This document shows, one piece after another, positions 23,055 to 52,058 of a stretch of DNA of 64,000 nt. The stretch is from NCBI GenBank assembly GCA_963838925.1, contig CAWISW010000001.1, positions 128,001-192,000 of the forward strand, read 5' to 3'. Made by a program: the position numbers and the translations under genes. Under the pieces are notes generated by a model. The model had not been told where the DNA came from. It saw nothing but the letters and a program-made list of their open reading frames with translations, and made no database searches. Origin of the DNA: an uncultured Nitrososphaerota archaeon. Lineage in GTDB: Archaea > Thermoproteota > Nitrososphaeria > Nitrososphaerales > Gagatemarchaeaceae. Position 1 is the stretch's first letter. Each line of letters begins with the position of its first letter.

Positions 23055-23981
23055 CTACTTCGCCGACGGGAGGCTGGGGAATTGTTCCCCAAGCGCGTAC
23101 TGAATCGCTTCTTTAACTTCTTGAGAGATCTCTGCTTTGATATCCTCTTTCTGGGCTTCGGAGAGTTCCAGCCTCCTCTCCTCGTAGAGGAGTGGATCCC
23201 TCTTTGCGAGTTCGGCCAATTCACTCTTGCTCCTGGCATCAGGCTGCCCTTGCTTGTGCCAGCAGAGCCTGGTGGTATTCATATCCACGATATAGGGTTT
23301 CGATGTTTCTCTGACTACCGTAGAGGCCTCGCTCACGGCTTGCATTACTTCATCGAGGTGGTTACCGTCAACCTGAGAGGACTCGATTCCGTATGCCTTT
23401 GCCCTTTCGGCGATGGTCTTGGTGGGGAGGTAGAACTCAGGGCGTATATTCCCCGCCAGTCCGTTGTTCTCACAGAGCATTAACAGGGGTGCCTTTCTGA
23501 CGCTCGCTATATTTAGCCCCTCGTGGAACTGCGCGTTACTTGTGGCCGCATCGCCGAAGAAACAGGCGACAATGTCAGAACCCTTCAGGTAGTTCTTCAC
23601 TGTCCAAGCGAGTCCCGCTGCGACGGGCACACATGTCCCGACGAGCTGGAAGCTGAACATGTAACGTAACTTCGGGTAGCTGATGTGCATCTCCCCCGCC
23701 ATTCCTCCATTCACACCGCTCTCCCTTCCGAGTATCTCGGCTACAAGCGGCTTCAGGGGCATCCCACGAGACACTGAGTGTGCAATCGTCCGGTGATGAG
23801 TCACTATATAGTCGGTCGGACGCAGCGCAGCACAGGCCCCGACGGATATCGCTTCTTGGCCCTTGCTAAAGTGCAAGTCACCTGCGTCCCCTTCAAGGCA
23901 GAGCCTCTGCAGCTCGTCTTCGAGGACACGTATCTTCAGCATCCTCTTGTAGAGCTCAATTTCGACGACCGTCTCCATCAA
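23055..23981 (-). CDS. TPP-dependent E1 alpha-like subunit
   Basis: GQEA, THHR, GDAA...CENN TPP-binding motif, VDGN. Confidence 0.88.
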   Translation of the reverse strand: MMETVVEIELYKRMLKIRVLEDELQRLCLEGDAGDLHFSKGQEAISVGACAALRPTDYIVTHHRTIAHSVSRGMPLKPLVAEILGRESGVNGGMAGEMHISYPKLRYMFSFQLVGTCVPVAAGLAWTVKNYLKGSDIVACFFGDAATSNAQFHEGLNIASVRKAPLLMLCENNGLAGNIRPEFYLPTKTIAERAKAYGIESSQVDGNHLDEVMQAVSEASTVVRETSKPYIVDMNTTRLCWHKQGQPDARSKSELAELAKRDPLLYEERRLELSEAQKEDIKAEISQEVKEAIQYALGEQFPSLPSAK

Positions 23982-24967
23982 TTCGATAACCTCCTTATCG
24001 CCGCAAGTATCTCCTCATCGGTGGGTAACATATACTTGTGCAGTGCCTGGCTGGCAGGTATGGTTGATTTGGGCGCGCCCAGCCTTTCAATTGGCTTCTT
24101 GAGGCTGTTGAAACAACGCGATTGGACCTCGGCAGCGATTTCTGCCCCGACACCTCCATATTTTATGTCAGGTTCGACTATCAGTAGCTTTCCTGTCCTT
24201 GAAACGGACTCGCAGACGGTCTCAAAGTCTACAGGCGCCACCGTCCTAAGGTCGATAAGATCACATTCTATTCCATGCTGGGCAACTAGAGATTCCACCT
24301 GACACATCGTCAGCGCGTAGGATACAATTGTTAGCTGGTCCCCGGCGAGTCTCCGCCTCGCAAAACCAAAGGGGATGGGGTTGTTGGAGGTTAGATTTTG
24401 GTCAGACTCGTCAATGTTTGCGTCACTAATCATCCTGTCCTCGAAGAAGAGCGTCACGCCAGGTGTCCTAAGGGCAGTCAGCATCAAACCACGAGCATCG
24501 TTGGGTGCTGACGGCACTGCCACGTTCAACCCCGGGATGTGTGCGAAGATGGCTTCCGGTCTCTGTCCTGTTGTAGGCCCACCCATGAAGTATTCTGCCC
24601 TGATTACTATGGTCCTTGGGTCCATCGCTCCTCCTAGGACGAAGTTGATTTTCGCTGCCGTGTTGCATATGCTGTCGAGAGTTCGATAAAGGAAGTCCCC
24701 GAGTATGACATCAACTACGGGCTTGATTCCCGCGAGCGCCGCCCCCACGGCGAAGTTCGTGTTGCCGTCTTCAGAGATGGGCAAGGTGATGACCCTCTCC
24801 CCGAATTCCTTCTCGATATCAGGCGCGTCGAAGTGAATCTTCATGTGCGCCCCTTCACCGAAGAGGTAGATTGACGGGTCGATTCTCATCTGCTGTAATA
24901 TTGCACCATAAATTCCGTTTCTTATCAGCCTGTTCCGGGCCCAAGCATTGGGCTTTTTTGTCTGCAA
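23978..24967 (-). CDS. TPP-dependent E1 beta/transketolase-C-like subunit
   Basis: LFGEG, PISE, HIPGLNV, IDLRTVAP, SVSRTGKLLIVE; probable TTG start at 24967. Confidence 0.88.
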   Translation of the reverse strand: MQTKKPNAWARNRLIRNGIYGAILQQMRIDPSIYLFGEGAHMKIHFDAPDIEKEFGERVITLPISEDGNTNFAVGAALAGIKPVVDVILGDFLYRTLDSICNTAAKINFVLGGAMDPRTIVIRAEYFMGGPTTGQRPEAIFAHIPGLNVAVPSAPNDARGLMLTALRTPGVTLFFEDRMISDANIDESDQNLTSNNPIPFGFARRRLAGDQLTIVSYALTMCQVESLVAQHGIECDLIDLRTVAPVDFETVCESVSRTGKLLIVEPDIKYGGVGAEIAAEVQSRCFNSLKKPIERLGAPKSTIPASQALHKYMLPTDEEILAAIRRLSN

Positions 24968-25021
24968 TTGAGCTCTGCAGTAAACAAGGTTCTTATAATG
25001 TATTTTGAACGCTATGCATGA

Positions 25022-25990
25022 TTGGCTTCGGATTTCTTCCGCGACAAACTGGTGGCCGTGACAGGCGCGACTGGTCTGAACGGATCGTATATCATGAATG
25101 CTCTTTCTGGGACGGGCGCCAAAGTTAGGGCGGTGATTCATCGAAGACCGCCTACTGAATTTACCAAACTTGCGGATGAATTCGTCACAGCCAACCTTAT
25201 GGAGGGCGAAGCAACTCGGAGTGCTATCAAGGGTGCAGAAATAGTAATCCACGCTGGAGGCGTCACAGGAGGAATCCCATTTGCTATGGCTGATCCTGCC
25301 GCTTTGGTCGCTCCCAACGCAATAATCGCCACCCAGGTCATCGATGCTTGTGCGAAGGAGAAAGTTGAACGTCTCTGTGTGCTCAGCAGTACGACCGTTT
25401 ATCCTCCTTCAGACTTGCCGGTGAAAGAAGATGAGGCGTGGACGGGCGAACCCTATGAGATGTACTACGGAATAGGTTGGGTCAAAAGGTTCACCGAAAA
25501 GCTCTGCACGTTTTACGCCGAGAATTACGGTCTCCAGGTTGCTATAGTCAGGCCAGCAGGAGCCTATGGTAGGTTCGATGACTTCGATGAAGGGACATCT
25601 CACGTGATTCCTGCCATGATAGCTCGGGCAGTCTCCGGGGTGAATCCATTCGTGGTGTGGGGTGATGGTGGCGATGTGAGAGACTTCGTGCACGCGAGCG
25701 ACCTGGCTCAAGGGGCATTGCTCGCAGTGGAGAAGCACGCGAACTGTGACGCCGTCAACATCGCGTCGGGCGTGCCATGCACCACGGGGCAGCTTGCCAA
25801 GATAATCTTGGAGGCCGTTGGGAGCGGTGCAGAGATCAAATTCGACCCCACCAAGCCGTCTGCAATGAGGATTCGCAAGGTGGACATCTCAAAGGCGCAG
25901 AGTCTGCTAGGTTATTCCCCAAGGATGTCGTTGCATGAAGGAATCAGAGATACGGTCGCCTGGTACAGGAGTCGATTGCGCGGAAGCTGA
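25022..25990 (+). CDS. GDP-L-fucose synthase/ColC-like extended SDR (atypical active site)
   Basis: TGATGLNG, GGI, SSTTVYP, SHVIPAMI, WGDG..RDFVH; YxxxK position reads IGWVK. Confidence 0.78.
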   Translation: MASDFFRDKLVAVTGATGLNGSYIMNALSGTGAKVRAVIHRRPPTEFTKLADEFVTANLMEGEATRSAIKGAEIVIHAGGVTGGIPFAMADPAALVAPNAIIATQVIDACAKEKVERLCVLSSTTVYPPSDLPVKEDEAWTGEPYEMYYGIGWVKRFTEKLCTFYAENYGLQVAIVRPAGAYGRFDDFDEGTSHVIPAMIARAVSGVNPFVVWGDGGDVRDFVHASDLAQGALLAVEKHANCDAVNIASGVPCTTGQLAKIILEAVGSGAEIKFDPTKPSAMRIRKVDISKAQSLLGYSPRMSLHEGIRDTVAWYRSRLRGS

Positions 25991-31500: not shown

Positions 31501-32046
31501 TCATAGCCTGCGCCGCCCTTGTAGTTCCTGAATGACCAGCGCCGCGCTCGCCTCCGGGGAGCCCTTCTCGGTCTCCACCACGATGTCAGCGTCGGCAGGT
31601 TCCTCGTATGGGTCCTGGATGCCTGTCATGTTGGTGATTTCCCCTCTCCTGGCTTTGGCGTAGAGCCCCTTTGGGTCTCTCATCTCGCATACCGCGAGGG
31701 ACGCCTTCACGTAGAGTTCCAGAAATCTCTCCGGCCCGATCATCTGCTTCGCGCTTTCTCGAGAAGTACGGTAGGGTGAGATCAGCGCGACTATCGCGAC
31801 GACCCCGTTCCTCGAGAGCAGCTTCGAGACGAACGAGACCCTCCTGGCGTGCTCCTCCCTGTCCTCCCTCGAAAGGCCGAGGTCGCGCGAGATGCCCTTC
31901 CTCACCTCGTCGCCGTCAAGAATCTCGACTCGCATGCCGTAGTCTTTCTCGAGCTTCGCCTTTAGCAGGCCCGCGAGCGTCGACTTGCCGGACCCCGGAA
32001 GGCCGGTCATCCAGAGCGTGAACCCCTCCTTCGTCTCACCCGTCAC
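31501..32046 (-). CDS. cysC: Adenylyl-sulfate kinase
   Basis: WMTGLPGSGKST, LDGDEVR, ISPY, RDPKGLY, TGIQDPYEEP. Confidence 0.95.
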   Translation of the reverse strand: MTGETKEGFTLWMTGLPGSGKSTLAGLLKAKLEKDYGMRVEILDGDEVRKGISRDLGLSREDREEHARRVSFVSKLLSRNGVVAIVALISPYRTSRESAKQMIGPERFLELYVKASLAVCEMRDPKGLYAKARRGEITNMTGIQDPYEEPADADIVVETEKGSPEASAALVIQELQGRRRL

Positions 32047-33449
32047 CTCGCTTCGCTTCCGAGCGCGTCCTCTATCATCCTTCCACCAAAGCCCGCGCTC
32101 TTTGCGTCGAGGCCGAGAAGGGTCAGGAGCGTCGGGGCCACGTCCTCGGCTCTCGCTCCCTTCACCTCGCGCCCCTCGAGGTCGCGCCCCGGCTCGCGCA
32201 TCATGAATACCCCGTCCATCGAGTGCACCGAGTCGTCCGGTCCGGTGTCGTTCTCGGCGAGATAGAGCGAGTCGTGCCCGACGGTCCCTGCAGACCTCCA
32301 GTCCAAATCGTCGAAATATACCATCAGGTCGGGCTTGTCCCCGACCGCCTTCCCGTACAGTCTTGCGGGCTCGGTGACCCAGTTCTTCATGGTCCTGCCT
32401 GCGTCGTCCTTGATCTTCGAGATCCGCTCGGAGAGCCGCCTCTTCTCTGCCTCGAAGTCAGACGGGTCGACCACTCCCTGTGCCTCCCTGCCCTTCACGT
32501 TGAAGAATATCCTGGCGTAGTAGCCTCCCCATCCCCAGGCCTTCGTCCTGCTCCAGTCTATCTCGGCCTTCTCCAACTCGGTGGGTTTCTCTGGTCTCTT
32601 CTTGAACCTAAGGTACCCCTCCTGCTCCAACCACTGGTTCACACAGAAGCCTCCCTTCATAGCCTTCGAGCCGTGGTCAGAGACGATGAAGGTCGCGCAG
32701 TCCTCGCCCAAGAAAGGCAGAAGCCTCCCGATGCGCCTGTCCACCATGGAGTAGTACTCGACGTCAATCCCTTCGTACTCATTTCCCTTTACGTATTTTG
32801 GATGCTTCGGATCGAAGAACTTCCAAAAGGCATGGTGCAGCCTGTCGAACCCAATCTCATGCATCATGAAGAAGTCCCATGGCTTGGTCTTGGCCAGGTG
32901 CTCTGCGACGTCGAACCGCTTCTCCGTCATCTCGAAGAGCTCCTTCTTCACCTCTGCTCTGTCTTCCGTCCTGAACGTCACGTCGAAGATGTACTTCCCT
33001 CCTGCCGCTTTGATTACCTCGTCCCTCATCTCATCAGGGTTGGTGAAGGGGCGGTCTGTTGAAGGGGTCAAGAAGCAGGACACCGTGCTGGCGTTCGTCA
33101 CATGCTTAACCGGGTAGCCAGGTGGGACGCCAATCACCACCGACCTCCTCCCCTTCTCTGAAAGAACTTCCCAGACGGTCTTGGCGCGGACATTCGCTGA
33201 GGTCACGATGTAGCCGTCGTTGTACGAAAAGCCTCTCCTGTGCTTGAAGCCGTAGATTCCGAGCTCGCCGGGGTTCTTCCCCGTCATCATCACCATCCAC
33301 GCGGGAACAGTGATGGGCGGGTCGCACGTCCTCAGCCTGCCGTGCAGCCCCTCGGCGTAGATCTTTCGGAAGTTCGGAAGCTTGTCGAGGAGCTTGTCAA
33401 AGAGCAGCTCCGGAAGGACCGAGTCCAGACCGAGGACAGCGACTTTCAA
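32043..33449 (-). CDS. Alkaline-phosphatase-superfamily enzyme (nucleotide pyrophosphatase/phosphodiesterase type, COG3379-like)
   Basis: LGLDS, PPITVPAW..TGKNPG, DRLHH, VSDHG, H..DG. Confidence 0.88.
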   Translation of the reverse strand: MKVAVLGLDSVLPELLFDKLLDKLPNFRKIYAEGLHGRLRTCDPPITVPAWMVMMTGKNPGELGIYGFKHRRGFSYNDGYIVTSANVRAKTVWEVLSEKGRRSVVIGVPPGYPVKHVTNASTVSCFLTPSTDRPFTNPDEMRDEVIKAAGGKYIFDVTFRTEDRAEVKKELFEMTEKRFDVAEHLAKTKPWDFFMMHEIGFDRLHHAFWKFFDPKHPKYVKGNEYEGIDVEYYSMVDRRIGRLLPFLGEDCATFIVSDHGSKAMKGGFCVNQWLEQEGYLRFKKRPEKPTELEKAEIDWSRTKAWGWGGYYARIFFNVKGREAQGVVDPSDFEAEKRRLSERISKIKDDAGRTMKNWVTEPARLYGKAVGDKPDLMVYFDDLDWRSAGTVGHDSLYLAENDTGPDDSVHSMDGVFMMREPGRDLEGREVKGARAEDVAPTLLTLLGLDAKSAGFGGRMIEDALGSEAR

Positions 33450-33459
33450 TCTCTCAGTC

Positions 33460-34599
33460 TCACTCCACGAACGGGTGGTCGAACTTCAGTATTGCCTGCG
33501 CCACCTCGGGCCTCATGAACTCCTTCGGGGGCACCTTCCGCTCCGAGAACATCTGCCTCAGCTTCGTACCGCTGAAACTGAGCCTGTCCTCTCCTCCATG
33601 GGGACAGGTCTTTTCGCTCGCTATCCCCTCGCACTTCTTGCAGTAATAGAACTCCCTGAAGAAGAAGGGGGTGATGCCTAGGTCAGGAAACTCCTTGAAT
33701 ACCTCCTGTGCAGCATAGGGCCCGTAGTAGCTTCCGACGCCGGCATGATCTCTTCCGATGCAGATGTGGGTGCACCCGAAGTTCTTCCTCATTATCGCGT
33801 GCATTATGGCCTCCTTCGGCCCCGCGTACTGCATCTCATAGTGGAGGGCGCTCATCACGACGCTTTTCCGGGGATAATAACCCCCCGTCAAAGCCTTGTA
33901 TGACGAGAGTATCACCTCGTCCCGAAAGTCCCCTGCCTTCTTTCTCCCGAGCACCGGATTGATGAAGAGGCCGTCGACCATCGAAAGGGCGGTCTTCTGA
34001 AGGTACTCGTGGTTGATGTGCGGCGCGTTCCGCGTCTGGAACGCCACGATCGTCCTCCATCCCTTCTCTGCGAAGAGGACCCTCGTCTCCCTCGGCATCA
34101 GGGTCATGTCGGCGAACTGGCCATAGTCAGGCCTGACCGCGACCTCCAGCTTCCCCGAGATCGCGGTTTCAGGAGCCGCGCACACCTTCGCCACGCCCGG
34201 GTGCGCCTCGTCCTCGGTGCCGTAGATCTTCTTGGCGTACTCGCGCTTCGATATCTTGAACGTCCCTTCGGGCTTCATTATAGCCACCGGGTTGGCGCTC
34301 TCGTCCACCAAGAGAAGGCTGCCTCCATCCCGAGTCGGACGGTCGGTCGTAAGCAGGAGAGGTATCGTCCAAGGGACGTCGCTCTCCAGCCTGTCCTGCT
34401 CGAGGATGTTGAGATAGTCGTTCTCTGACATGAATCCCTCGACCGGGCTGAAGACGCCGTTAGCAATGTTTGCCACCGTCAGGACGACTTCCCTTGAGAC
34501 GGTCAGGCGCTGTTCCTCGGTGAACTCGCTGAAGGCCTCGGGGTTGCTCGACGACTGCCTGATCTGGACCAGCCTGCCTCCGTGAGGCGTGTTTGACAT
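33460..34599 (-). CDS. sat: Sulfate adenylyltransferase (ATP sulfurylase)
   Basis: PHGGRL, AFQTRNAPH..HE, YAGPKEA, GRDHAGVG, SGTKLR. Confidence 0.95.
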   Translation of the reverse strand: MSNTPHGGRLVQIRQSSSNPEAFSEFTEEQRLTVSREVVLTVANIANGVFSPVEGFMSENDYLNILEQDRLESDVPWTIPLLLTTDRPTRDGGSLLLVDESANPVAIMKPEGTFKISKREYAKKIYGTEDEAHPGVAKVCAAPETAISGKLEVAVRPDYGQFADMTLMPRETRVLFAEKGWRTIVAFQTRNAPHINHEYLQKTALSMVDGLFINPVLGRKKAGDFRDEVILSSYKALTGGYYPRKSVVMSALHYEMQYAGPKEAIMHAIMRKNFGCTHICIGRDHAGVGSYYGPYAAQEVFKEFPDLGITPFFFREFYYCKKCEGIASEKTCPHGGEDRLSFSGTKLRQMFSERKVPPKEFMRPEVAQAILKFDHPFVE

Positions 34600-34609
34600 G
34601 CGCCTCTAC

Positions 34610-34828
34610 CTACAGGTACCCCAAGGCCTGGAGGCGCCTCTTGATCTCGACAAGGTCGGTGCTCGTGAAGGGCTCGGGAACGTCCTTCATCTCGTGCATC
34701 GCGACCACTTCTCTTAGGACATAGGTTACATAGTCTGAGACCGATTTGAAGCCGGTCTTCTTCGCAATCAGCTTCTCCAGCCTCTTGTGGAGCGTCAGCG
34801 GGATCGAGACGGACGTGTACTTCGTCAT
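34610..34828 (-). CDS. CopG/ribbon-helix-helix regulator with RLQALGYL tail
   Basis: YTSVSIP..L...GFKSVSDYVTYVLRE RHH; first gene of the sat operon. Confidence 0.85.
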   Translation of the reverse strand: MTKYTSVSIPLTLHKRLEKLIAKKTGFKSVSDYVTYVLREVVAMHEMKDVPEPFTSTDLVEIKRRLQALGYL

Positions 34829-34887
34829 GCCTTGTCGCAGACCGGGTCTAATTACATATAATTATGCTTGATTGCCATCCATGACAG

Positions 34888-35994
34888 GTGGCGGCCTTCG
34901 ACCTTTCCCTGGGTGTCGTCGTCTTCTTCGTCCTCCTCTCACTGGGGGCGTCGGTGGTCAACGGAGGCCTCGGCTACGGTTACTCCTCCCTCTCGACGCC
35001 CCTCGCGATTCTCGTCTTCGCGAACAAGATACTCAACCCTGCCTACATCCTCCTGGAGGCAGGGATCAACACATTCATGCTATTCCTGTCCGGCAGGAGG
35101 AACATCACCGCAACATACAGGCGGACGATTCCAGTCATCCTCGCGCTGATCCCTGGCGTCATCGTCGGCAGCCTCATCCTCAACGACGTCGCCCCATTGT
35201 GGATACGCTTCACGGTCTACGTAGTGATCCTGCCCTTGATACTTCTCCAGGCGGCGGGATTCAGGCGACCGCTCGAGGGCGAAGCTCGCGCTGGCGTCCC
35301 GCTCGGGTTGAGCGTCGGCCTCCTCTACTCAATCACGACCATCTCCGGCCCTCCTATCGCCCTGTTCTGGAACAACCAGGGTCTGAAACAACAGGAGTTC
35401 AAGGCCGCCGTCGCCCAGGTACGCATCGCAGAGTCCTATCTGACGTGCGTCTCCTACTACCTTCTCGGACTCTTCACGGCTCAAAGCCTATCGATCTTCA
35501 AGGTCATCTCGCCTCCCGTCCTCCTCGGCATTCCCATCGGAATGTTCATCGTGAGCAAGGTGGCGGTCGAGACCTTCAGGAGGGTCTGCATGGCGTTCGA
35601 CGCGGGCATCGTCGGTTTCGGCCTGTCTGCGACCCTGCCGACGCTCTTCGGGATCAACCCTCTCCTGGGCGACCTCCTCTTCGCCGCGGTCCTGGCCCTC
35701 GACCTCGGCCTGCTCTACCGCTTCTTCAGGGGAAGATCAAGGGGCGTGGCGCCCGAGGCCAGTGCGATCGAAACTGGAAAGAGGATGGACGGGGGGACTG
35801 GCCCCCCACGAAGCTCTGGCGTCTGGGCTCAGGCCGTACGGAAGCTAGACTACGACCTCCTCGGCGCCTCCCCCGGATCGGCTCGGACGCCCCCAACACC
35901 GGGACGGGCCTGTGGGAATCAATCCGGCCGCAAGGACGTCGGCGTTCGGGGACTGTCGCGGACTACGGGAGCACGTCGAAGCCCGCCTGCTTGA
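34888..35994 (+). CDS. TauE/SafE-family sulfite/organosulfur exporter with a long atypical C-terminal tail
   Basis: VNGGLGYG and TTISGPP motifs, about 8 TM helices; the last ~85 aa are low-complexity and overlap the convergent vapC. Confidence 0.82.
   Translation: MAAFDLSLGVVVFFVLLSLGASVVNGGLGYGYSSLSTPLAILVFANKILNPAYILLEAGINTFMLFLSGRRNITATYRRTIPVILALIPGVIVGSLILNDVAPLWIRFTVYVVILPLILLQAAGFRRPLEGEARAGVPLGLSVGLLYSITTISGPPIALFWNNQGLKQQEFKAAVAQVRIAESYLTCVSYYLLGLFTAQSLSIFKVISPPVLLGIPIGMFIVSKVAVETFRRVCMAFDAGIVGFGLSATLPTLFGINPLLGDLLFAAVLALDLGLLYRFFRGRSRGVAPEASAIETGKRMDGGTGPPRSSGVWAQAVRKLDYDLLGASPGSARTPPTPGRACGNQSGRKDVGVRGLSRTTGARRSPPA
35850..35896 (-). repeat. Diverged duplicate of the ABC permease 3' end (cf. 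36674-36721)
   Basis: 22/26 identities counted by hand; encodes DPGEAPRRS* vs NAVEALRRS*. Confidence 0.75.
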
Positions 35995-36385
35995 AGTGGG
36001 GGTCGAACGCGAAAGCCTGGTGTATCCCCGAAGCTCGCATCGTCACGAAGGAAACGCAATCCGTGAGGCTCCAGGCCTTGTCCCTGCTCTGCTTGAACAG
36101 TTTGAAGGCCTCCGCGAAACCTTCCTTCCCGACATATTCCACGGCGAGTATCTTGGACGAGATGCATGCCTCGCCGAACTCGACGGCTTTACCGTGGCTG
36201 TGGGCGAGCATGATGAGGGTGATTGTCTCGTCAAGGACGTAGTCGGTCGTCACGAGCCGTTTGGTCTTAGACTCCTTCGACCCAAGAGTCTCCATCCAGG
36301 CGCGAGCCCTCTCGTGGAGATCGTCTTCCTGGTCATAGTATGCCTTGAAGGCTGATGAATCTACGAACACGCGAGAGCCCATCAA
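35963..36385 (-). CDS. vapC: PIN-domain VapC toxin
   Basis: VFVDSSAF, TTDYVLDET, SLTDCVSF, AFDPHF. Confidence 0.9.
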   Translation of the reverse strand: MMGSRVFVDSSAFKAYYDQEDDLHERARAWMETLGSKESKTKRLVTTDYVLDETITLIMLAHSHGKAVEFGEACISSKILAVEYVGKEGFAEAFKLFKQSRDKAWSLTDCVSFVTMRASGIHQAFAFDPHFKQAGFDVLP

Positions 36386-36612
36386 GTGTAAAGGACCTCG
36401 TCGATCTCATCCGCCTTCACTTTCACCTTGAACCTGAAGGGCTTCAGCCTCACAAGCGGGTCGTCAGCGATGTTGCTCGAGGAGACCGCCCACTCGACAA
36501 TCGCGACCTTCGCCGCCTGTTTTATCGTCATCCCCTTCGACTTGGCGCTCGAGGCGAGCATGTCGTACTCCTTGCTCTCGAGCTCCGTCTGCACCACTTT
36601 CCTCTCCGCCAT
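36382..36612 (-). CDS. Putative antitoxin (RHH-like)
   Basis: Small gene overlapping the vapC start; KVVQTEL..EY..L...AK.KGMTIKQAA. Confidence 0.75.
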   Translation of the reverse strand: MAERKVVQTELESKEYDMLASSAKSKGMTIKQAAKVAIVEWAVSSSNIADDPLVRLKPFRFKVKVKADEIDEVLYT

Positions 36613-36621
36613 GCGTAATTT

Positions 36622-36633
36622 ACATGTACATGT
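36622..36633. promoter_or_regulatory. Palindromic TA operator
   Basis: ACATGTACATGT between a TTAAAT TATA-like box and the antitoxin start. Confidence 0.55.
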
Positions 36634-36673
36634 CGCATTTAAGGGTTGCATTCGCCTGGCGGCTCTGCGGACT

Positions 36674-38062
36674 CTACGACCTTCTCAGCGCTTCCACCGC
36701 GTTCATCCTCGACGCCCGCCACGCCGGAATGAGCCCGCCGAAGGTGCTGATGGCCACCGCCAGAAATATCGCGAGCAACAACAACTCGGGCGTGACCGCA
36801 GGCGTGATCGCCAGGGTCGACGAGGCCGACGACGCCGCCGGGCCAACGAAGGAGGGCCCCGCCCCTCCTCCGCCCGTCGCTCCGCGAGCCGCCGTTGCGG
36901 CGGACGTAACTCGGACGCCTCCGCCCCCTCCACCGCCCCCGCCGAAGCCTGGGACCCTCAGCGTACCGCTGAGCGCCCCTATCACGAGGAACGAGAGCAT
37001 GTATCCCGCCCCCGCGCCTATGAATCCGCCGATGAGGCCGGTCACGATCGCCTCGGCGATGAAGACGACCATTATCCCCCTGCTAGTGGAGCCGAGGGCC
37101 TTCAGGACGCCTATCTCCTTGGTCCGCTCGAGGACTGAGGTCAGCATCGTCGTCATTATCCCGATGAACGCCACGAGGACGGATGTCCCGGCGACCGCCT
37201 CGAGCAGGGTCGACGTCCCGGAGGTCACAGACTGGATCGAGGAGAGCAGGGAGCTTACCGATGTCGTCCTGATGTTGTTGCCGTAGGCCGCCGTAAGCTC
37301 GTTGGTCACCTCGGTGACCGCGCCTGGGCTCGTTGCGACCACCATTATGCCCGTGAAGGTCGTGCTCTTTAGAATCTGCTCACCCGAGGCGAGCGGGATG
37401 AAGACCGTGGTGTCTGGGGTGATCTCGAACCCCGACCCGTACGGGCCGAAGATGCCCGTGACGACGAACGAGTGCGCGGTGGAAGCTGACGAGCTCGAGC
37501 CGCCGAACGCGTTTGTCCCTACTCCAGCCCCGATGACGAACCCGGACGACCTGCCGACCCCTGAGACGGTGACCACTTGGTTGACCGTGAAGTTGCCGGC
37601 GCCCGAGACGTTCGGGTATGCGATGGAGTTGCCGATAGCCGCGCCCAAGGTGTCCGTGCTCGCGGGGGCCCCTCCCTGGGAGAGGGCGAGTTTGGGAAAG
37701 GCCGTGGCCAGCTGGGAGAAGTCGACGGCGACGATCGAGGCCCCTATCTTGGTGCTCCCGTCTGTGATCTGTCCGTTGAGCTGCTGGTAGGGGATGGCGC
37801 TGAGGACTCCGGTCATGTTCCCGATGGCCGACGCGTCTACCGCGGTCAGCGTCGTAGTCCGACCGACCGGCGCCACGTAGAGCGTGGTCGCCCCCAGAGA
37901 GGAGAACTGCGCGGCGCTCGCGTTGCTGTACCCTTGGGTCGCGCTTACGAGAGAGACTATGGTCGCGGGCCCGATGACGATGCCTAGTATCGTCAGGACG
38001 GCCCGAAGCTTGCGCTCTGTAAGCGCGCGCATCGCGTACTTTACGAGTCCGACAGGCCGCAT
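36674..38062 (-). CDS. ABC transporter permease (MacB/FtsX/LolE type)
   Basis: RAVLTILGIVIG, SVLERTKEIGVLKALG, PAWRASRM..VEALR. Confidence 0.92.
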   Translation of the reverse strand: MRPVGLVKYAMRALTERKLRAVLTILGIVIGPATIVSLVSATQGYSNASAAQFSSLGATTLYVAPVGRTTTLTAVDASAIGNMTGVLSAIPYQQLNGQITDGSTKIGASIVAVDFSQLATAFPKLALSQGGAPASTDTLGAAIGNSIAYPNVSGAGNFTVNQVVTVSGVGRSSGFVIGAGVGTNAFGGSSSSASTAHSFVVTGIFGPYGSGFEITPDTTVFIPLASGEQILKSTTFTGIMVVATSPGAVTEVTNELTAAYGNNIRTTSVSSLLSSIQSVTSGTSTLLEAVAGTSVLVAFIGIMTTMLTSVLERTKEIGVLKALGSTSRGIMVVFIAEAIVTGLIGGFIGAGAGYMLSFLVIGALSGTLRVPGFGGGGGGGGGVRVTSAATAARGATGGGGAGPSFVGPAASSASSTLAITPAVTPELLLLAIFLAVAISTFGGLIPAWRASRMNAVEALRRS

Positions 38063-38097
38063 CTAGCTGGGCACCCGCCTTCCGGCGTCGCTCTCGG

Positions 38098-40755
38098 TCA
38101 AATCACCGACTTCTCTTCGATGTCCTGTTGGGGCATGTTGGCGAACCTCTTCGACCGGTACCTCCTCATGAGGAAGCCCCCGACGACGATCGTTACGGCG
38201 ACGGCCGCGACCGCTCCATATGCGACGTAGGTCGTGTAGTCCACGCTCGTGGTAGTCTTCGTGGTCGTGACGGTTCCGCCGGCGCCGACGAGCTGGCTCG
38301 CAGTCTTCACCGTCGTTGGGACGGTGAAGGCAAAGACTTGGTTCGCGCTGAAGCCGTCCTTGTAATTCAATGTGAGCACGATGCTCGCGGAGGCGTTCGC
38401 GCCCGTCGAAGTGCGGCCTACGCCGAAGGTGCCTGCACCGCCTGGCACGAAGCTGCTGTTCCTCGAGAAGCTCCCCGTGAGCGTCCTGCTGGTGCTCACT
38501 GAGATGAAGGTGCTAGACGTGCTGGACGAGGCGGTCGTCGAAAATCCCGTCCCGTTCAGGCTGCTGGCCGCGGAGGTGGTGCTAGTGGTGGTCGTCGTGG
38601 AGGCCGTCGCGGCGATGTAGGGTATCGTGACGCTGAACGGGGCTGGCGTGTTGGGGTCGACCTCTCCTATGTAGACGGCCGTGCCCACGTTCGGCCCGAA
38701 AAGGCCGGTGAGAGAGGCGTAGTAGGCGGGAACTGTCCCTTCGTTGAGGATGGAGCCCGTCACCGTGAAGCCGGTGGTGGTCTGGGACACCAGAGTGTTC
38801 TGGAGGATCAGTATCACGGTGCCCTTGAGAGTGAACGAAAGCGGGAATGTCTGCGTGTGCGAGGCCCCGTTGGAGTCCGTGAAGGTCACCGTCAGCGTCC
38901 CGCTGTAGACGCCGATCGCCGCGCTAGGACCGCTGGTGAGGACCACGTCGAAGGTCGTGGCCTTGCCGGGGTCGAGCTGCGGTGCGGGGACGCTGGACCC
39001 CGTCGAGGCGACCACGATGGGCGAACCGACGTTAAGCGAGAAGGTCGGCGAATAGATCGAAGCGGTCCCCTGGTTGGTCAGCTGGAAGCCCGCGGGGTTC
39101 TGGGAACCCGCCGCCAAAGTGGAGTTCACCTGCACCACCGCGAGCGGGAAGCTAGCGGTCGTCGCAGGCGCCGCGATCGGAGGTGGGGAGAAGGAGGCGC
39201 TCTGAGTCAGCGTCACAGAGACTGACGTGATCCAAGAAAGCCCAAGAGAGAAGTTGTAGCTGCCTGGCTTCACACTGCTGGCAACGTCAAGGTTGAACGT
39301 GAGGCTGATGACTTGGTTTGCGGAGACGATAGCCGCAAAGGCAGTCGCCGTTGGGTGGCCGTTGAGGTCGGTTATTCCGGCTGGCATCGTGACGGTGCCC
39401 TTCAGGCTTGTGACTGATGTCGTCCCGAGATACTGCAGGGTGACGACTAGCGGACTGTTCTGTGTTCCGGGGAGGGGGGCGGTCGCGGTAGAGGACGTGC
39501 CCCAGGTCGCTCCTTCGACCAGGAACTGGGACTGCAGCGCGGGTATCGGGGGTGGGGTCAGGACCGCGGTCTGAGTGAGTCCGACCGACTGCGACGTGCT
39601 CCACTCAAGGTTCAGCGTGAAGTTGTAGCTCCCGGGCATCAACGAGCTCGCGAGGTTGACATAGAAAGTTAGCTGTATCGCCCCATACTGGTTCGTAGTC
39701 GCAGATGAGAAAGCGACTGCCGTGCTGCGTCCGTTTAGGTCGGTGATGCCCGCAGGCAACTGGACCGTCCCTTGGAAGCTCGTCACCGGGGTCGAGCCGA
39801 GATACTGCATGCTCACGACCAATGGCGTGTCTTGGGTTCCAGGGAGCGGTGAAGTCGTCGAACCCGCGCTCCCCCACTGGGATCCCTCGACCACGAACGA
39901 TGACGCGGGCTCGACCGTCGGAGAGGAGACCATGAAGCCGAGTGTCTGGGTGACGGTCTGGGTGTTCGAGTAGGCGTCGAGGTACTTCGCGGTCAAGGAC
40001 ATGGTTATCGCTGTCCCACTCAGTGAAGAAGGAACGAACAATTGCAGTACCTCCGTGGCGCTCCCTCCGGGTGCCAAGCCTGTCGTCATCGGCAATTGGT
40101 TCAGCAGAGTGACGCTCGAAGGCGCGCTAACTGTGGTCGAGACCGGACCCGAGGAAGCTGACCCTGAGTTGGAGATGGTGAGCGTCAAATTGTCCACCCC
40201 TCCAGCCGACAGGTGTGAAGACCCCGCTGCAAAGTTCAGTTGGACGGGACCGTAGAGCGCAATAGGTGCCGTGGCGAGCTCTGTTATTACGCTCGAGACC
40301 GAATTGTTGTCATACTGGATTACTACAGGAATGTAGTATGTAATGCCCGTAGTCGCACTCTGCTCCACGTTCATGTAAAATGTCTCTGTAAAGAGAGTGT
40401 TTGGGCTGACGTTCAGGGCGATGTTCTTGGGCTGCGTGACACCGTCTTGCCCAGTGAACGGAACAGGGTTCGAGGACGAAGCCAGGCTCAGCTCTATGCT
40501 CGCCTGGGGGGCGGTGCATGGCCCGGAGAAGAGCACAGTTATGGTAAGAGGCACGTTCTGGTCGCCGGGGTATACGCTCTGTGGAGACCCCGACACCCCC
40601 CAGATTGCTCCTATTACCGCGAATGGGTTGGTCTGGGACGTGCAAGAGGTGTCCGACGTAGAGCCACCGATTGCCGCAAATGCGGGGGATGCGTAGGCCG
40701 TCGCAGAAATGACCAGCAGGGCGAGCACGAAAGAGCCGGAGATGGGTTTCTTCAT
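38098..40755 (-). CDS. Large secreted, C-terminally membrane-anchored Ig-like/S-layer domain protein (COG1361-like)
   Basis: Signal peptide, beta-rich Ser/Thr repeats, Thr/Ser linker, C-terminal TM plus basic tail; lies between ABC ATPase and permease. Confidence 0.8.
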   Translation of the reverse strand: MKKPISGSFVLALLVISATAYASPAFAAIGGSTSDTSCTSQTNPFAVIGAIWGVSGSPQSVYPGDQNVPLTITVLFSGPCTAPQASIELSLASSSNPVPFTGQDGVTQPKNIALNVSPNTLFTETFYMNVEQSATTGITYYIPVVIQYDNNSVSSVITELATAPIALYGPVQLNFAAGSSHLSAGGVDNLTLTISNSGSASSGPVSTTVSAPSSVTLLNQLPMTTGLAPGGSATEVLQLFVPSSLSGTAITMSLTAKYLDAYSNTQTVTQTLGFMVSSPTVEPASSFVVEGSQWGSAGSTTSPLPGTQDTPLVVSMQYLGSTPVTSFQGTVQLPAGITDLNGRSTAVAFSSATTNQYGAIQLTFYVNLASSLMPGSYNFTLNLEWSTSQSVGLTQTAVLTPPPIPALQSQFLVEGATWGTSSTATAPLPGTQNSPLVVTLQYLGTTSVTSLKGTVTMPAGITDLNGHPTATAFAAIVSANQVISLTFNLDVASSVKPGSYNFSLGLSWITSVSVTLTQSASFSPPPIAAPATTASFPLAVVQVNSTLAAGSQNPAGFQLTNQGTASIYSPTFSLNVGSPIVVASTGSSVPAPQLDPGKATTFDVVLTSGPSAAIGVYSGTLTVTFTDSNGASHTQTFPLSFTLKGTVILILQNTLVSQTTTGFTVTGSILNEGTVPAYYASLTGLFGPNVGTAVYIGEVDPNTPAPFSVTIPYIAATASTTTTTSTTSAASSLNGTGFSTTASSSTSSTFISVSTSRTLTGSFSRNSSFVPGGAGTFGVGRTSTGANASASIVLTLNYKDGFSANQVFAFTVPTTVKTASQLVGAGGTVTTTKTTTSVDYTTYVAYGAVAAVAVTIVVGGFLMRRYRSKRFANMPQQDIEEKSVI
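39154..39897 (-). repeat. Tandem internal domain duplication (2 x about 124 aa)
   Basis: FxVEGxxWG..PLPGTQxxPLVVxxQYLG..PAGITDLNG..PGSYNF repeated at 372-bp spacing. Confidence 0.85.
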
Positions 40756-41499
40756 CTACTTCAGCTCGTTGTTCCTAATCTCCACGATAGAGCCGTCGCG
40801 TATCGATATCACCCGCTGCGCGTGGGCGGCGACCTCAGGGTTGTGCGTGATTATCACGAGCGTCTTCCCGAACTCCCGGTTAAGCTGCTTCATCAGTCCC
40901 ATCATCATCTCGGTGTTCCTCGTGTCGAGGTTCCCGGTGGGCTCGTCGGCGAGCACGATCTTCGGGTCGTTGGCAAGGGCGCGCGCGACGGCGACCCTCT
41001 GGCGTTCCCCTCCGCTGATGTTGTTCACGTTCTTGTCCGCCTTGTGCGCGATGCCGAGCCTCCCGAGGAGCGCTAGAGCGCGTTTCCTGCTGAAGGCAGG
41101 GTCTGCGCCGGCGATGAATAGGGGGAGCTCCACGTTCTCGACCACTGACATCCGCGAGAGGAGGTTGAAGTCTTGGAACACGAATCCGAGCTTCCTGCTC
41201 CTGACCAGGGCGAGTTCCTTGTTCCCCAGCTTCGAGATGTCTATGCCGTCGATGTAGACCTTCCCGGAGGTCGGCCGATCCAGCGCTCCCAGGATGTTGA
41301 GGAGGGTGGTCTTCCCGCACCCCGAGGGGCCGATTATCGCGATGAACTCGCCCTTGTCAATCGAAAAGTCCAAGCCCCGAAGCGCGAAGACCGCGTCCTC
41401 CCCTGTGCCGTACCTCTTCTTGAGGCCCGCGACCTTTATCGCGTGCTCCTCCACGGGCGGGGGGACGGGAACCTGGACTGCCGATGCGGAGGCGCTCAT
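40756..41499 (-). CDS. ABC transporter ATP-binding protein (LolD/MacB type)
   Basis: GPSGCGKTT, SGGERQRVA, LADEPTGNLD, ITH. Confidence 0.93.
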   Translation of the reverse strand: MSASASAVQVPVPPPVEEHAIKVAGLKKRYGTGEDAVFALRGLDFSIDKGEFIAIIGPSGCGKTTLLNILGALDRPTSGKVYIDGIDISKLGNKELALVRSRKLGFVFQDFNLLSRMSVVENVELPLFIAGADPAFSRKRALALLGRLGIAHKADKNVNNISGGERQRVAVARALANDPKIVLADEPTGNLDTRNTEMMMGLMKQLNREFGKTLVIITHNPEVAAHAQRVISIRDGSIVEIRNNELK

Positions 41500-43759: not shown

Positions 43760-44152
43760 TCACCAGCGTATGACGCGGATGCCCTTCATCTCTGAGAAGT
43801 GCTCGTCTCTTGAAATCAGGGTCTCCCTGTTTTCAGCCACAATTCCCGCTATCAAGACGTCGAACTCGCCCGACAACTTACCCTTCCTCCTTAGGTCGGC
43901 ATAGATGTCCGCTCCAAGTGTGCAGCTCTCGTTGGTCAGCGGCAAGACCCTCAGCCCTTCGATTAGCGTTCTCACGCTCTCCGTGTTCCTTGCCGAATCC
44001 GATGAGATGAGCGCCCCCTTTAGGAGCTCGTACGCGGTGATCGCCGTTGTAGTCGGAATCCTCTTTTCATCCTCGAGGAGTCGCAGGACTTCTGCGGCCT
44101 TCCCATCTCCTCTGAGGAAACCTATTAGGAGGTCGGTGTCTAGGCAGACCAA
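43760..44152 (-). CDS. vapC: PIN-domain VapC toxin
   Basis: CLDTDLLI, TAITAYEL, FDVLIAG, ISRDEHF; TTG start just after the antitoxin stop. Confidence 0.9.
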   Translation of the reverse strand: MVCLDTDLLIGFLRGDGKAAEVLRLLEDEKRIPTTTAITAYELLKGALISSDSARNTESVRTLIEGLRVLPLTNESCTLGADIYADLRRKGKLSGEFDVLIAGIVAENRETLISRDEHFSEMKGIRVIRW

Positions 44153-44153
44153 C

Positions 44154-44381
44154 TCAGAGCCGTAGCTCCCTGCCCTTCGTGTTCTCTCTTTCCGCCGCCA
44201 GCATCCGGCCAATACTCTCCAAGTCGTCTCCCGACCATGCCCCCTTCAGTGCAAGCAGCGAGGGCCCCCGCTTGTCCCCGGTGAGTCTCACCACAACATC
44301 GGAGAAGGACTCGCCCTCTCCCTTTCGCTGCTTCAGCCTCCGGTACGCATCCTCAGATAGTGATATCACCTTCGTCATCAT
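44154..44381 (-). CDS. vapB: VapB-type antitoxin (DUF217/COG1753-like)
   Basis: TKVISLSEDAYRRLK..K.EGESFSDVV.RL. Confidence 0.88.
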   Translation of the reverse strand: MMTKVISLSEDAYRRLKQRKGEGESFSDVVVRLTGDKRGPSLLALKGAWSGDDLESIGRMLAAERENTKGRELRL

Positions 44382-48130: not shown

Positions 48131-49114
48131 GTGCATGAACGTCTCATGAAGATGAAACTCGTCTCCACCGCATTCTTCTCGATCACCGTCGTGCTCTCCC
48201 GCGTTTTCCCGACTGCAGGGTTCCTGCTGGCCGTCTTCTTCGGAGCAGCCTTCTGCGCATACGGAATAGCCCGAAGCTTTGCCAAACGCCTTGACCCCTT
48301 TAACGACGTCCCTAACGCCCTCCGAGTCTTCCTAGCATCCTTTGGTGGCTTTCTAGTCACCTTGACGCCGGCCTTCGTCTTCCCGTCGGCTGGTATTCTC
48401 TTGCTGGTCGGCGCGCTTTTCCTCAACGACGAGTTCCAGCGGAGGGCCCTATATGCGGTGAGGACGGGGAGGAAGGGCGGCTCAATCGCCCTCCTCGGGA
48501 TCGACGGGAGCGGCAAGTCGTCGCACTCGAGGGTCACGGGGAGGTGGCTCGAGGACCGAGGGTACCGGTGCACGGTCATGCCCTTCCACAGGTACCTCTT
48601 CGTGGAGCGCCTCGCCGCGATATCGTCTGCTGTGGGCGGCGGGGGAGGCGGCGGAGAAAAGTTCCAGTTCAAACGGGGCGGCAACCCTCTCAGGCCGGTA
48701 GCCTCGCTCCTCGACAACCTCCTGCTCCAGCTCTCGAGCTCGGTGGGTTGCAGGGTCGAGGGAAGGGTCGTGATCTACGACAGGTTCATCTGGAGCACCT
48801 ACGTCAAGTACAAGGCCTTGGGCTATCCGGTCAAGCCGATCTCCGGGCTCTACCTCGCGCCCAGGCCGACCTTCGCGCTGGTGCTCAACGTCCCTGTGGA
48901 CAAGTCGCTGCATGTCATCGACCAAAGGGTGTCCCACATTCACTACCCACGGGAGGTCCTCGAGTCCGAGAGGGAGCAGTACCTCGAGATCGCTAGGAAG
49001 AACGGCTATCCTGTAATCGATGCGACGGCCGCTTTCGAGGACGTGCAGGGCAGGATAGAGTCGCATCTCGGCGCCCTCTTCCCGCCGGTGGGTCGAGGAG
49101 CAAAGGCGAATTGA
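48131..49114 (+). CDS. Membrane-anchored thymidylate-kinase-like P-loop protein
   Basis: About 4 N-terminal TM helices, GIDGSGKSS P-loop, IYDRF motif. Confidence 0.75.
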   Translation: MHERLMKMKLVSTAFFSITVVLSRVFPTAGFLLAVFFGAAFCAYGIARSFAKRLDPFNDVPNALRVFLASFGGFLVTLTPAFVFPSAGILLLVGALFLNDEFQRRALYAVRTGRKGGSIALLGIDGSGKSSHSRVTGRWLEDRGYRCTVMPFHRYLFVERLAAISSAVGGGGGGGEKFQFKRGGNPLRPVASLLDNLLLQLSSSVGCRVEGRVVIYDRFIWSTYVKYKALGYPVKPISGLYLAPRPTFALVLNVPVDKSLHVIDQRVSHIHYPREVLESEREQYLEIARKNGYPVIDATAAFEDVQGRIESHLGALFPPVGRGAKAN

Positions 49115-51455: not shown

Positions 51456-52058
51456 GTGGCCGGCTCGAGCGCCAGATACTGCGTCCTCGACATGGACGGC
51501 ACCCTCATCTCGCTCCCAGTCGAGTGGGACAAGGTGAGGGCCGACCTGCAGAGGCTCACGGGCACCTCGCTCCAGTTCAACCCGTTCTTCCTCGACGTGC
51601 AGACCATCATCGCGAAGGCCCCGCTGCTGCTCGGCCCGATGATGAGGACTATCGACGAATACGAGTCTCGGGCGGTCCCGGAAGCAAAGCTCGAGGAGGG
51701 CGCGCTCGACGCCCTCTCCGGCCTCTCGGGGCGCATGAAGCTCTCCCTGGTCACGATGCAAGGAAGGGCTGCGTGCTACATGATACTCGAGCGGCTGAAG
51801 ATCGGGAAGTTCTTCGCCTCGGTCTTCACGCGCGAGGACTCGATGGACAGGACGGCCCAACTGAAGATGGCGCTGGGCAGCCTCGACGCGAAGGAGGCCG
51901 AGACGATATTCGTGGGAGACAGGATCAACGACCTGAACGCGGCGCGCGCGGCTGGGGTGAGGTTCGTGATGATCCGCAAGAGGCCCGACAGCCCGCCAGC
52001 GGACGAGCTCTACAGGAGCGTCGCCGAGTTCTCTAGGTCCCCTTGGGTAACGGGTTGA
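51456..52058 (+). CDS. HAD-superfamily hydrolase
   Basis: LDMDGTL, VT, FVGDRIND..AARAAG. Confidence 0.88.
   Translation: MAGSSARYCVLDMDGTLISLPVEWDKVRADLQRLTGTSLQFNPFFLDVQTIIAKAPLLLGPMMRTIDEYESRAVPEAKLEEGALDALSGLSGRMKLSLVTMQGRAACYMILERLKIGKFFASVFTREDSMDRTAQLKMALGSLDAKEAETIFVGDRINDLNAARAAGVRFVMIRKRPDSPPADELYRSVAEFSRSPWVTG

Follow-up and report, generated by a model that had tools for sequence, protein, structure and literature searches.

The window analysed here is a stretch of 64,000 nucleotides from an uncultured Nitrososphaerota archaeon of the Gagatemarchaeaceae (GenBank assembly GCA_963838925.1, contig CAWISW010000001.1, positions 128,001 to 192,000). It contains an operon coding for a small ribbon-helix-helix (RHH) regulator, the ATP sulfurylase Sat, a protein with the alkaline phosphatase (AlkP) fold and the adenosine 5'-phosphosulfate (APS) kinase CysC, together with a divergently transcribed permease of the TauE/TSUP family (Table 1). 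The genes are closely packed: RHH and Sat as well as Sat and AlkP are each separated by 10 nucleotides (nt), AlkP and CysC overlap by 4 nt, and the divergent intergenic region between RHH and TauE measures 59 nt. Sat matched PF01747 (E 1.9e-88) and NF003166 (459.8 bits, cut-off 387), CysC matched PF01583 (E 1.6e-59) and TIGR00455 (219 bits, cut-off 138.7), and TauE matched PF01925 with 62 bits (cut-off 32.6) over residues 15-237 and shows 47 hydrophobic windows. For the RHH open reading frame (ORF), the Pfam families CopG and RHH_10 were found only below threshold, and on longer homologues only. Judged from sequence, the family assignments of Sat, CysC, TauE and the AlkP protein are solid and that of the RHH protein is weak; TauE probably serves sulfate uptake. 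The TauE ORF has 368 amino acids (aa) compared to 244-271 aa in its homologues, and its last ~130 residues, beyond the Pfam match, are rich in Arg, Gly and Pro and of low complexity, which is either a real tail or the result of a missed earlier stop or a frameshift.

The initial annotation had described a tightly coupled RHH-sat-AlkP-cysC unit with a divergent TauE gene, embedded among glycosyltransferases (GTs) and flippases in a window without cysH, sulfite reductase, apr or a sulfotransferase domain, and the ORFs, domain matches and spacing bear this out. The surroundings of the operon are an archaeal glycan cluster with genes for GT2 and GT4 enzymes, flippases, DegT aminotransferases, epimerases, a UDP-Glc dehydrogenase and an AsnB-like amidotransferase. 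The names of homologues point to Nitrososphaerota/Thaumarchaeota. In a Pfam scan of the window ORFs no reductase or sulfotransferase domains were detected, and no hidden sulfotransferase emerged when the 10 Pfam-less ORFs were rescanned at E up to 0.001, where a thymidylate-kinase-like C-terminus and a weak Peptidase_A24 were the sole matches.

Table 1. Features of the window, with the operon and its promoter region first and other genes mentioned in the text below.
Feature	Position	Strand	Basis or remark
RHH/CopG-like small regulator, 72 aa	34610-34828	-	ORF call; first operon gene
Sat (ATP sulfurylase)	33460-34599	-	PF01747, NF003166; PUA_2 and ATP-sulfurylase domains
AlkP-fold protein, NPP-type, 468 aa	32043-33449	-	PF01663
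CysC (APS kinase)	31501-32046	-	PF01583, TIGR00455
TauE/TSUP-family permease	34888-35994	+	PF01925; divergent from operon
TAATTACATATAATTA, candidate operator TAATTA-N4-TAATTA	34849-34864	.	divergent RHH/TauE promoter region
PIN-domain gene with small upstream partner (36382-36651)	35963-36651	-	32-nt overlap with TauE 3' end
MacB/FtsX permease	36674-38062	-	block 36674-41499
885-aa protein	38098-40755	-	block 36674-41499; no Pfam family
ABC ATPase	40756-41499	-	block 36674-41499
Second PIN gene	43760-44212	-	
Wzx/Polysacc_synt flippase, N-terminal part	9137-10027	+	profile positions 2-181
Wzx/Polysacc_synt flippase, C-terminal part	9687-10706	+	PF13440 positions 154-290
E1 dehydrogenase alpha/beta pair	23055-25252	-	thiamine pyrophosphate (TPP)-dependent
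ORF with thymidylate-kinase-like C-terminus	48131-49114		rescan of Pfam-less ORFs
IMPase-family gene	52033-52851		NF009321 best, below cut-off
TnpB-like gene	61443-62690	+	Cas12f1-like TNB domain, E 8.9e-13

The promoter region between the RHH and TauE genes carries a 16-bp element that is the only perfect match to TAATTA-N4-TAATTA in the window. With up to two substitutions allowed, 22 of 36 loci from several archaeal phyla carry this element within the 120 nt that precede the RHH gene, compared to 27 of 1800 random 120-nt windows drawn from those loci. The RHH protein probably uses it as its operator.

To place the AlkP protein, its sequence and its predicted structure were compared with known families. 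It matched PF01663 with 151.3 bits (cut-off 23) over profile positions 1-342; at E up to 0.01 it matched no other Pfam family, and thus neither the sulfatases (PF00884) nor the sulfotransferases (PF00685, PF13469). No NCBIfam model matched, no relatives in the PDB were found by sequence at E up to 0.01, and in the protein atlas only 'alkaline phosphatase family' clusters were returned. A profile search gave a weak match to the arylsulfatase 6hhm (E 7e-7 over ~50 residues) and aligned T47 of the motif 'PPIT', which had been proposed from the sequence as the nucleophile position, with the nucleophile Thr90 in the 'SLTFP' motif of the nucleotide pyrophosphatase/phosphodiesterase (NPP) from Xanthomonas (Xac NPP). 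All six metal ligands of the two-metal site (D9, D202, H206, D258, H259 and H409) are kept and are conserved at 90% or more in an alignment of 62 relatives, where most of the rows shown have Thr or Ser at position 47 and one (P0159) has Met. Many arginines are invariant (R71, R160, R203, R313, R321 and R385).

The AlphaFold (AF2) model of the protein (pLDDT 96.7) superimposes on Xac NPP (7n1s_B) with a VIA Z of 30.5 and a root mean square deviation (rmsd) of 3.2 Å over 348 residues. For Xac NPP and ENPP1/3/4/5 taken together, Z values were 29-30.5 and rmsd values 3.0-3.4 Å over 342-360 residues at 15-19% identity, and Foldseek matched the model to ENPP1 with an E-value of 1.6e-18; ~120 residues of the protein stay unaligned to NPP structures. 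By these comparisons the protein is a true PF01663 member of a subfamily that looks uncharacterised. With the NPPs (Xac NPP, ENPP1/3/4/5/6/7) it shares the fold, the six metal ligands and the Thr nucleophile. However, neither a signal peptide nor a transmembrane segment was detected and the first metal ligand is already residue 9, so that the protein is predicted to be cytosolic, in the same compartment as 3'-phosphoadenosine 5'-phosphosulfate (PAPS), whereas typical NPPs are not cytosolic; it also differs from them in being encoded within PAPS-synthesis operons.

The distribution of the family was determined across 301 sampled genomes from the phylum, with a threshold of at least 43% identity for orthologues. 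The AlkP family was matched in 46 of the 301 genomes and an orthologue was found in 36. Of these 36 genomes, 27 have CysC no farther than 3 kb away and 23 have Sat no farther than 5 kb away, and in most of those without a nearby CysC or Sat the module is split across contigs. No AlkP gene was found in any of the 43 ammonia-oxidiser-like genomes of family f2, which carry a small PAPS_reduct gene next to Sat (this pairing was inspected by eye in six genomes). A prokaryote-wide scan of species-representative genomes, for which an alignment of 14 closer sequences was used, yielded 589 relatives, the best 80 of them at 43-86% identity. The archaea among these best 80 are Nitrososphaeria, Bathyarchaeia, Thermoplasmata, Archaeoglobi, Hadarchaeota, Asgard, Micrarchaeota and Desulfurococcales; the bacteria are Chloroflexota, Latescibacterota, Omnitrophota, Armatimonadota, Planctomycetota, Desulfobacterota, Acidobacteriota, Actinomycetota, Bacillota and others.

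The loci of these best 80 relatives were fetched along with 20 loci of Thermoproteota, giving 100 in total. All 20 Thermoproteota loci share the order RHH-Sat-AlkP-CysC at least in part, often followed by TauE. In the broader set, 55 of the 80 loci have Sat or CysC no more than 3 kb away; when the count is restricted to the 55 loci with 1.5 kb or more of sequence on each side, 44 do. An RHH homologue is present within 3 kb in 17 of the 80, and in most fetched loci it stands ahead of Sat. The module has TauE as a neighbour in at least 11 of the 100, and neither CysH nor sulfite reductase was found among 233 scanned neighbour proteins. The subfamily is thus strongly linked to sat and cysC; the arrangement is far beyond chance, and the family occurs widely and is tied to sulfate activation. 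The locus in the window belongs to a conserved module that activates sulfate without reducing it and is regulated by an RHH protein.

The linkage extends to gene fusions, which in the 50%-identity representative library comprise Sat-AlkP and CysC-AlkP (P0131, P0136), AlkP-GT2 (P0127), AlkP-pyruvate-kinase-barrel-Sat and NTP-transferase-AlkP; in five Anaerolineae loci the Sat similarity lies directly upstream within 863-aa frames. P0200 and P0252 join the AlkP domain to a pyruvate-kinase barrel, and one of the two continues into Sat (1151 aa); such fusions may serve to regenerate ATP for PAPS synthesis.

Whether sulfate is reduced in this organism was addressed by a genome-wide search for cysH, sir and apr in the assembly (1.84 Mb, 3 contigs, 87% complete). 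PF01507 (PAPS_reduct), PF01077 (NIR_SIR), PF00685 (Sulfotransfer_1), PF13469 (Sulfotransfer_3) and PF00884 (Sulfatase) had no match in the genome, and a true aprA was not found in it (best 19.6 bits, cut-off 641). PF03567, PF17784 and PF09037 were silent too, but equally so in 14 control genomes, and are therefore uninformative. PF01507 is too broad as a marker for CysH, as 209 of the 301 genomes match it, mostly with frames of ~600-700 aa, and it was used by its complete absence alone. Since no route was found to reduce APS, PAPS or sulfite, PAPS would not be a step towards sulfide; it is here a sulfate donor or a signal. The other 24 module-bearing genomes contain PF13469 in two cases and PF00685 in two, with neither family in 21, and sulfatase-like genes in five, with none shown in 19. 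In one of them, G255 (95% complete), Sat, CysC and AlkP are present, and PAPS_reduct, sulfotransferases, sulfatases and an above-cut-off second PF01663 protein were not found. No other PAPS consumer was found in this genome or in G255, which supports the AlkP enzyme as the consumer.

A further indication comes from genes for the removal of 3'-phosphoadenosine 5'-phosphate (PAP or pAp). A DHH-DHHA1 gene is part of the module in 8 of the 100 fetched loci and a PHP gene in 4; for the latter the best NCBIfam model is 3',5'-nucleoside bisphosphate phosphatase, at 211-221 bits (cut-off 400). As two unrelated types of pAp phosphatase have been recruited into the module, we conclude that it produces PAP and that the pathway includes a PAPS consumer. 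In the Archaeoglobaceae loci L043 and L048 the genes form an RHH-DHH-AlkP-CysC operon, and in the L048 genome (Archaeoglobus) the only Sat lies on another contig in a sat-DUF6955-aprB-aprA locus. CysC, AlkP and DHH of L048 would be three consecutive steps, namely APS kinase, PAPS consumer and pAp phosphatase. In our genome no CysQ equivalog and no match to a module-type DHH protein were detected, the single PF01368 hit being a 486-aa frame on contig C3. The IMPase-family gene of the window had been suggested as the PAP-removing enzyme. This suggestion is weakened, as the gene is 20 kb away from the operon, fits the archaeal FBPase/IMPase model NF009321 best (225.7 bits, cut-off 264) and reaches 43.3 bits with the CysQ model TIGR01331 (cut-off 228.8).

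These genes also bear on the question whether the AlkP enzyme is itself a nucleotidase of the pathway, either a PAP 3'-phosphatase analogous to CysQ or a valve that hydrolyses APS or PAPS and so limits activated sulfate. Enzymes of the NPP fold bind and cleave adenine nucleotides, and the structural neighbours named above are of this kind; PAP phosphatase genes are commonly located with PAPS genes, and the lack of a detected CysQ or module-type DHH protein in this genome fits as well. However, 12 of the 100 loci already carry a pAp-phosphatase-type gene of the DHH-DHHA1 or PHP kind beside AlkP, which would make a second one redundant and which led us to demote the PAP phosphatase to a minor alternative. 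Moreover, a PAP phosphatase would still leave no producer of PAP, and an enzyme that hydrolyses APS or PAPS while being encoded together, or even fused, with those that make them would run a futile cycle. A nucleotidase role is therefore highly improbable.

We tentatively favour a function of the NPP-type AlkP enzyme as a PAPS-consuming sulfotransferase; we consider it the most likely reading, as it alone completes the pathway, though still an uncertain one. TauE would import sulfate, Sat would make APS and CysC would make PAPS, the latter two steps by family assignment. The metal-activated Thr47 may then take the sulfuryl group from PAPS with release of PAP, and the sulfate may be passed from Thr47 to a hydroxyl acceptor, which in this genome would most likely be a nucleotide sugar or a lipid-linked glycan from the surrounding cluster. 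PAP would be cleared by a phosphatase encoded outside this window, a task for which the DHH-DHHA1 or PHP protein of the module is the candidate in other genomes.

The gene cluster itself is already described in Thermococcales, and sulfate transfer by its AlkP enzyme is what we infer here. Pyrophosphatase activity of TON_1705, from the cluster TON_1704-1707 of Thermococcus onnurineus, was reportedly described by Lee et al. in 2009, going by the title of their paper (J Bacteriol 191:3415). In Pyrococcus yayanosii the genes pych_17520-17560, which have a TauE gene next to them, code for a CopG protein, ATP sulfurylase, a DHH pAp phosphatase that was shown to be a fast and specific pApase, a 'type I phosphodiesterase/nucleotide pyrophosphatase' and APS kinase (Jin et al., 2021, PMC8268124). 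The same paper lists the cluster in Ferroglobus, Aciduliprofundum, Aeropyrum and Ignicoccus, notes that neither a sulfotransferase nor an enzyme for the step from sulfite to sulfide could be identified in P. yayanosii, and calls the significance of the pathway unclear (PMC8268124). The operon in the window agrees with this cluster in its parts and their order (CopG-type gene, Sat, PF01663-type gene, APS kinase, TauE adjacent) and in the production of PAPS without an identified sulfotransferase or sulfite-reducing enzyme, as stated for P. yayanosii. It differs in that the DHH pAp phosphatase gene lies between Sat and AlkP there and none is present in the window, and in that the window operon is part of a glycan cluster in a Nitrososphaerota genome, the two having been matched by annotation and gene order. 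The reading of the initial annotation is thus supported in part: the linkage of the subfamily and the failure to find reduction genes stand, whereas the cluster is published and the counterpart TON_1705 is reported as a pyrophosphatase.

This counterpart provides the strongest argument for a different function, i.e., that the AlkP enzyme is a dedicated inorganic pyrophosphatase (PPase) which pulls the unfavourable Sat reaction by removing pyrophosphate (PPi), while the sulfotransferase is encoded elsewhere, for example by the PF01663 paralogue AlkP2 described below or by another family. PAPS-synthase-PPase fusions occur in stramenopiles, and in a coupled ATP sulfurylase/APS kinase (ATPS/APSK) assay the removal of PPi was rate-limiting. 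Secondary statements in the literature name TON_1705 as a pyrophosphatase between the APS kinase TON_1704 and the PAP phosphatase TON_1706, and gene order and annotation in two papers suggest that TON_1705 is the PF01663 gene. In Table 1 of PMC9653972 TON_1705 is given a pH optimum of 9.5, a kcat of 2.1 s-1, a Km of 18.8 uM and a kcat/Km of 0.11e6 M-1 s-1. This value of 1.1e5 M-1 s-1 is not negligible, and PPi hydrolysis is the sole biochemistry reported for any counterpart. Jin et al. (2021) likewise assign PPi degradation to PYCH_17550, as a speculation and not from measurement (PMC8268124).

The genomic data add to this case. The Sat-AlkP fusions, including the 863-aa frames of the five Anaerolineae loci, and the NTP-transferase-AlkP fusion fit a PPase too. 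Relatives at 32-34% identity adjoin CysD-CysN-TauE, and no CysC was found in those families, which fits PPi removal or else calls for APS as the donor; this CysDN-linked branch is possibly an APS-using variant. Its loci L106-L108 (genomes G150, G023 and G103) also lie near sugar-related genes. Distant AlkP relatives that seemed to lie beside a PAPS reductase were rejected as a separate case, as the PAPS_reduct gene followed by an EF-Tu-like gene is CysD-CysN. Finally, orthologues keep 43-50% identity between archaea and bacteria, and most modules stand alone with unrelated flanks; both features are easier to reconcile with a small substrate of universal occurrence, such as PPi, than with variable glycans.

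Several observations are difficult to reconcile with a PPase function. The turnover of 2.1 s-1, at the optimum of pH 9.5, is about four orders of magnitude below that of Ton1914, the family I PPase of the same cell, for which the same paper gives a kcat of 2.995e4 s-1 (PMC9653972), and this slow turnover counts for the sulfotransferase. Family I PPase (PF00719), to which the AlkP protein does not belong, is present in 17 of the 25 module genomes and an H+-PPase in 7 of the remaining 8, so that 24 of 25 already have a family I or membrane PPase; this genome has both. In 11 of the 80 broader loci AlkP is beside CysC with no Sat within 3 kb, and the Archaeoglobus RHH-DHH-AlkP-CysC operon has no PPi-making step at all. 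In addition, the family was not found in the 43 f2 genomes, where Sat adjoins PAPS_reduct, and CysH or Sir neighbours were seen in none of the fetched loci. A PPase would leave PAPS without a consumer in G255 and, according to Jin et al., in P. yayanosii. Taken together, we regard a dedicated PPase as rather unlikely. If the AlkP enzyme is a sulfotransferase, the PPi hydrolysis by the Thermococcus counterpart would be a side reaction, because PPi mimics the phosphosulfate anhydride.

A precedent by analogy for the proposed sulfotransferase comes from archaeal N-glycosylation. Agl30 (VNG1056C) and Agl31 (VNG1057C) of Halobacterium salinarum are N-glycan sulfotransferases, as judged by deletion and by heterologous expression in Haloferax, and Agl7 (HVO_2046) of Haloferax volcanii is annotated as an N-acetylgalactosamine-4-sulfatase. 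Like the AlkP protein these have an AlkP-superfamily core and belong to archaeal glycosylation clusters without classical sulfotransferases. However, they are sulfatase-like, with sulfatases as their closest structures, whereas the window protein belongs to PF01663 and not PF00884 and has a Thr nucleophile, and no linkage to Sat or CysC is reported for them. In the 2025 paper on Agl30 and Agl31 the words 'donor', 'adenosine', 'APS' and 'phosphoadenosine' have no occurrence. Beyond Agl30/Agl31 and the two Thermococcales papers, our literature search for a PF01663 or AlkP-fold PAPS sulfotransferase found nothing. Compared with the classical PAPS sulfotransferases (PF00685, PF13469, PF03567), the proposed reaction would be the same (PAPS + ROH -> ROSO3- + PAP), but the window protein has no sequence or fold kinship with them. 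Classical enzymes transfer the sulfuryl group directly, without a covalent enzyme intermediate.

Besides the points shared with the PPase, others weigh against a sulfotransferase. Sulfate transfer by the AlkP family is so far deduced rather than measured, NPP enzymes normally attack phosphorus and not sulfur, and we know of no precedent for a sulfo-Thr intermediate on the AlkP/NPP fold. The completeness of 87% limits the genome-wide absences. In genome G201 the module, which reads RHH-Sat-CysC/AlkP/AlkP2, has a classical sulfotransferase (PF00685 66.6 bits, PF13469 27 bits) ~5 kb away, at L005:4500-5333 (G201:C20:14562-15194) within a GT2/GT4 cluster; this module clearly feeds glycan sulfation, whatever AlkP does. 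In L101 a classical sulfotransferase is also found near the module.

The weakest part of the sulfotransferase reading is the acceptor, for which the initial annotation had named a sugar or lipid-linked glycan. In favour of this, glycan genes lie within 3.5 kb in 9 of the 20 Thermoproteota loci. AglB/STT3 adjoins the module in L034, GT2/GT4 enzymes, sugar epimerases and flippases do so in other loci, and the AlkP-GT2 fusion P0127 is a further link to glycans. NAD-dependent sugar epimerases are found at 8 of the 100 fetched loci. On the other hand, glycan genes directly flank only 7 of the 80 broader loci, which together with the cross-domain identity given above points to a conserved acceptor and not to variable glycans; examples would be a small metabolite or a sugar bound to a nucleotide or to polyprenyl phosphate. 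With this modification, and with somewhat more reserve than for the enzyme itself, we propose for the whole PF01663 subfamily, with its 589 or more occurrences in species-representative genomes, that it may be a widespread non-canonical sulfotransferase, which would move the sulfuryl group of PAPS (or of APS in the CysDN branch) via a metal-activated Thr to a conserved acceptor. Together with RHH, TauE, Sat, CysC and the DHH or PHP pAp phosphatase it could form a self-contained mobile sulfation cassette.

An alternative or additional transferase in this genome may be AlkP2, a candidate that also speaks against the AlkP enzyme as the only consumer. AlkP2 genes code for PF01663 paralogues of ~510 aa with 23-31% identity and adjoin the module in 10 of the 100 fetched loci. 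The copy of this genome (G000:C2:461475-463007; L105:9476-11008, plus strand) encodes 510 aa with 26% identity to the window protein. It overlaps the start of a Wzx-type flippase gene by 14 nt, with a GT2 gene and two sugar epimerases nearby, in a second glycan cluster, and is a candidate for an enzyme that modifies glycans.

Further features of the window lie around the operon. The PIN-domain gene that overlaps the end of TauE, with its small upstream partner, is probably a toxin-antitoxin pair of the VapBC type, and a second PIN gene lies farther along. Next to the first pair there is a block of an ABC ATPase, an 885-aa protein and a MacB/FtsX permease; a MacB-type permease is also located two ORFs away from TauE in the closest relative locus, L023. 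The 885-aa protein is rich in Ser and Thr, has a signal-like segment at its N-terminus and a hydrophobic anchor at its C-terminus, and is likely a surface glycoprotein substrate. The two parts of one Wzx/Polysacc_synt flippase lie in separate ORFs that overlap and differ in frame, due to either a frameshift, a pseudogene or a sequencing error. Within the glycan cluster the E1 dehydrogenase pair stands beside two epimerases and a DegT aminotransferase, which may indicate unusual sugar side-chain chemistry. The TnpB-like gene adjoins a DNA ligase gene. No tRNA genes or Rfam families were found in the window.

The purpose of this cluster is already a question in the papers on Thermococcales, where PAPS is made and a dedicated pAp phosphatase is present, with no known sulfotransferase or sulfite-forming enzyme. 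If the AlkP enzyme is a pyrophosphatase only, the finding is an ordinary one and the question of the PAPS consumer moves to the AlkP2 paralogues or to another enzyme. If the proposed sulfotransferase is correct, the published pyrophosphatase TON_1705 would be re-assigned, and the presence of PAPS in archaea and uncultivated bacteria without a known PAPS-using enzyme would be explained, along with a source of sulfated glycans and exopolymers. The common annotation 'alkaline phosphatase family protein' would then hide a new class of sulfotransferases with covalent, metal-assisted chemistry, and the finding on Agl30 and Agl31 would extend to a second AlkP family and gain a named donor. The capacity for sulfation could become predictable in many uncultivated archaea and bacteria, among them Bathyarchaeia, Thermoplasmata, Asgard, Anaerolineae, Latescibacterota and Scalindua, which would matter for envelopes and biofilms, shaped as these are by sulfated exopolymers and surface glycans.

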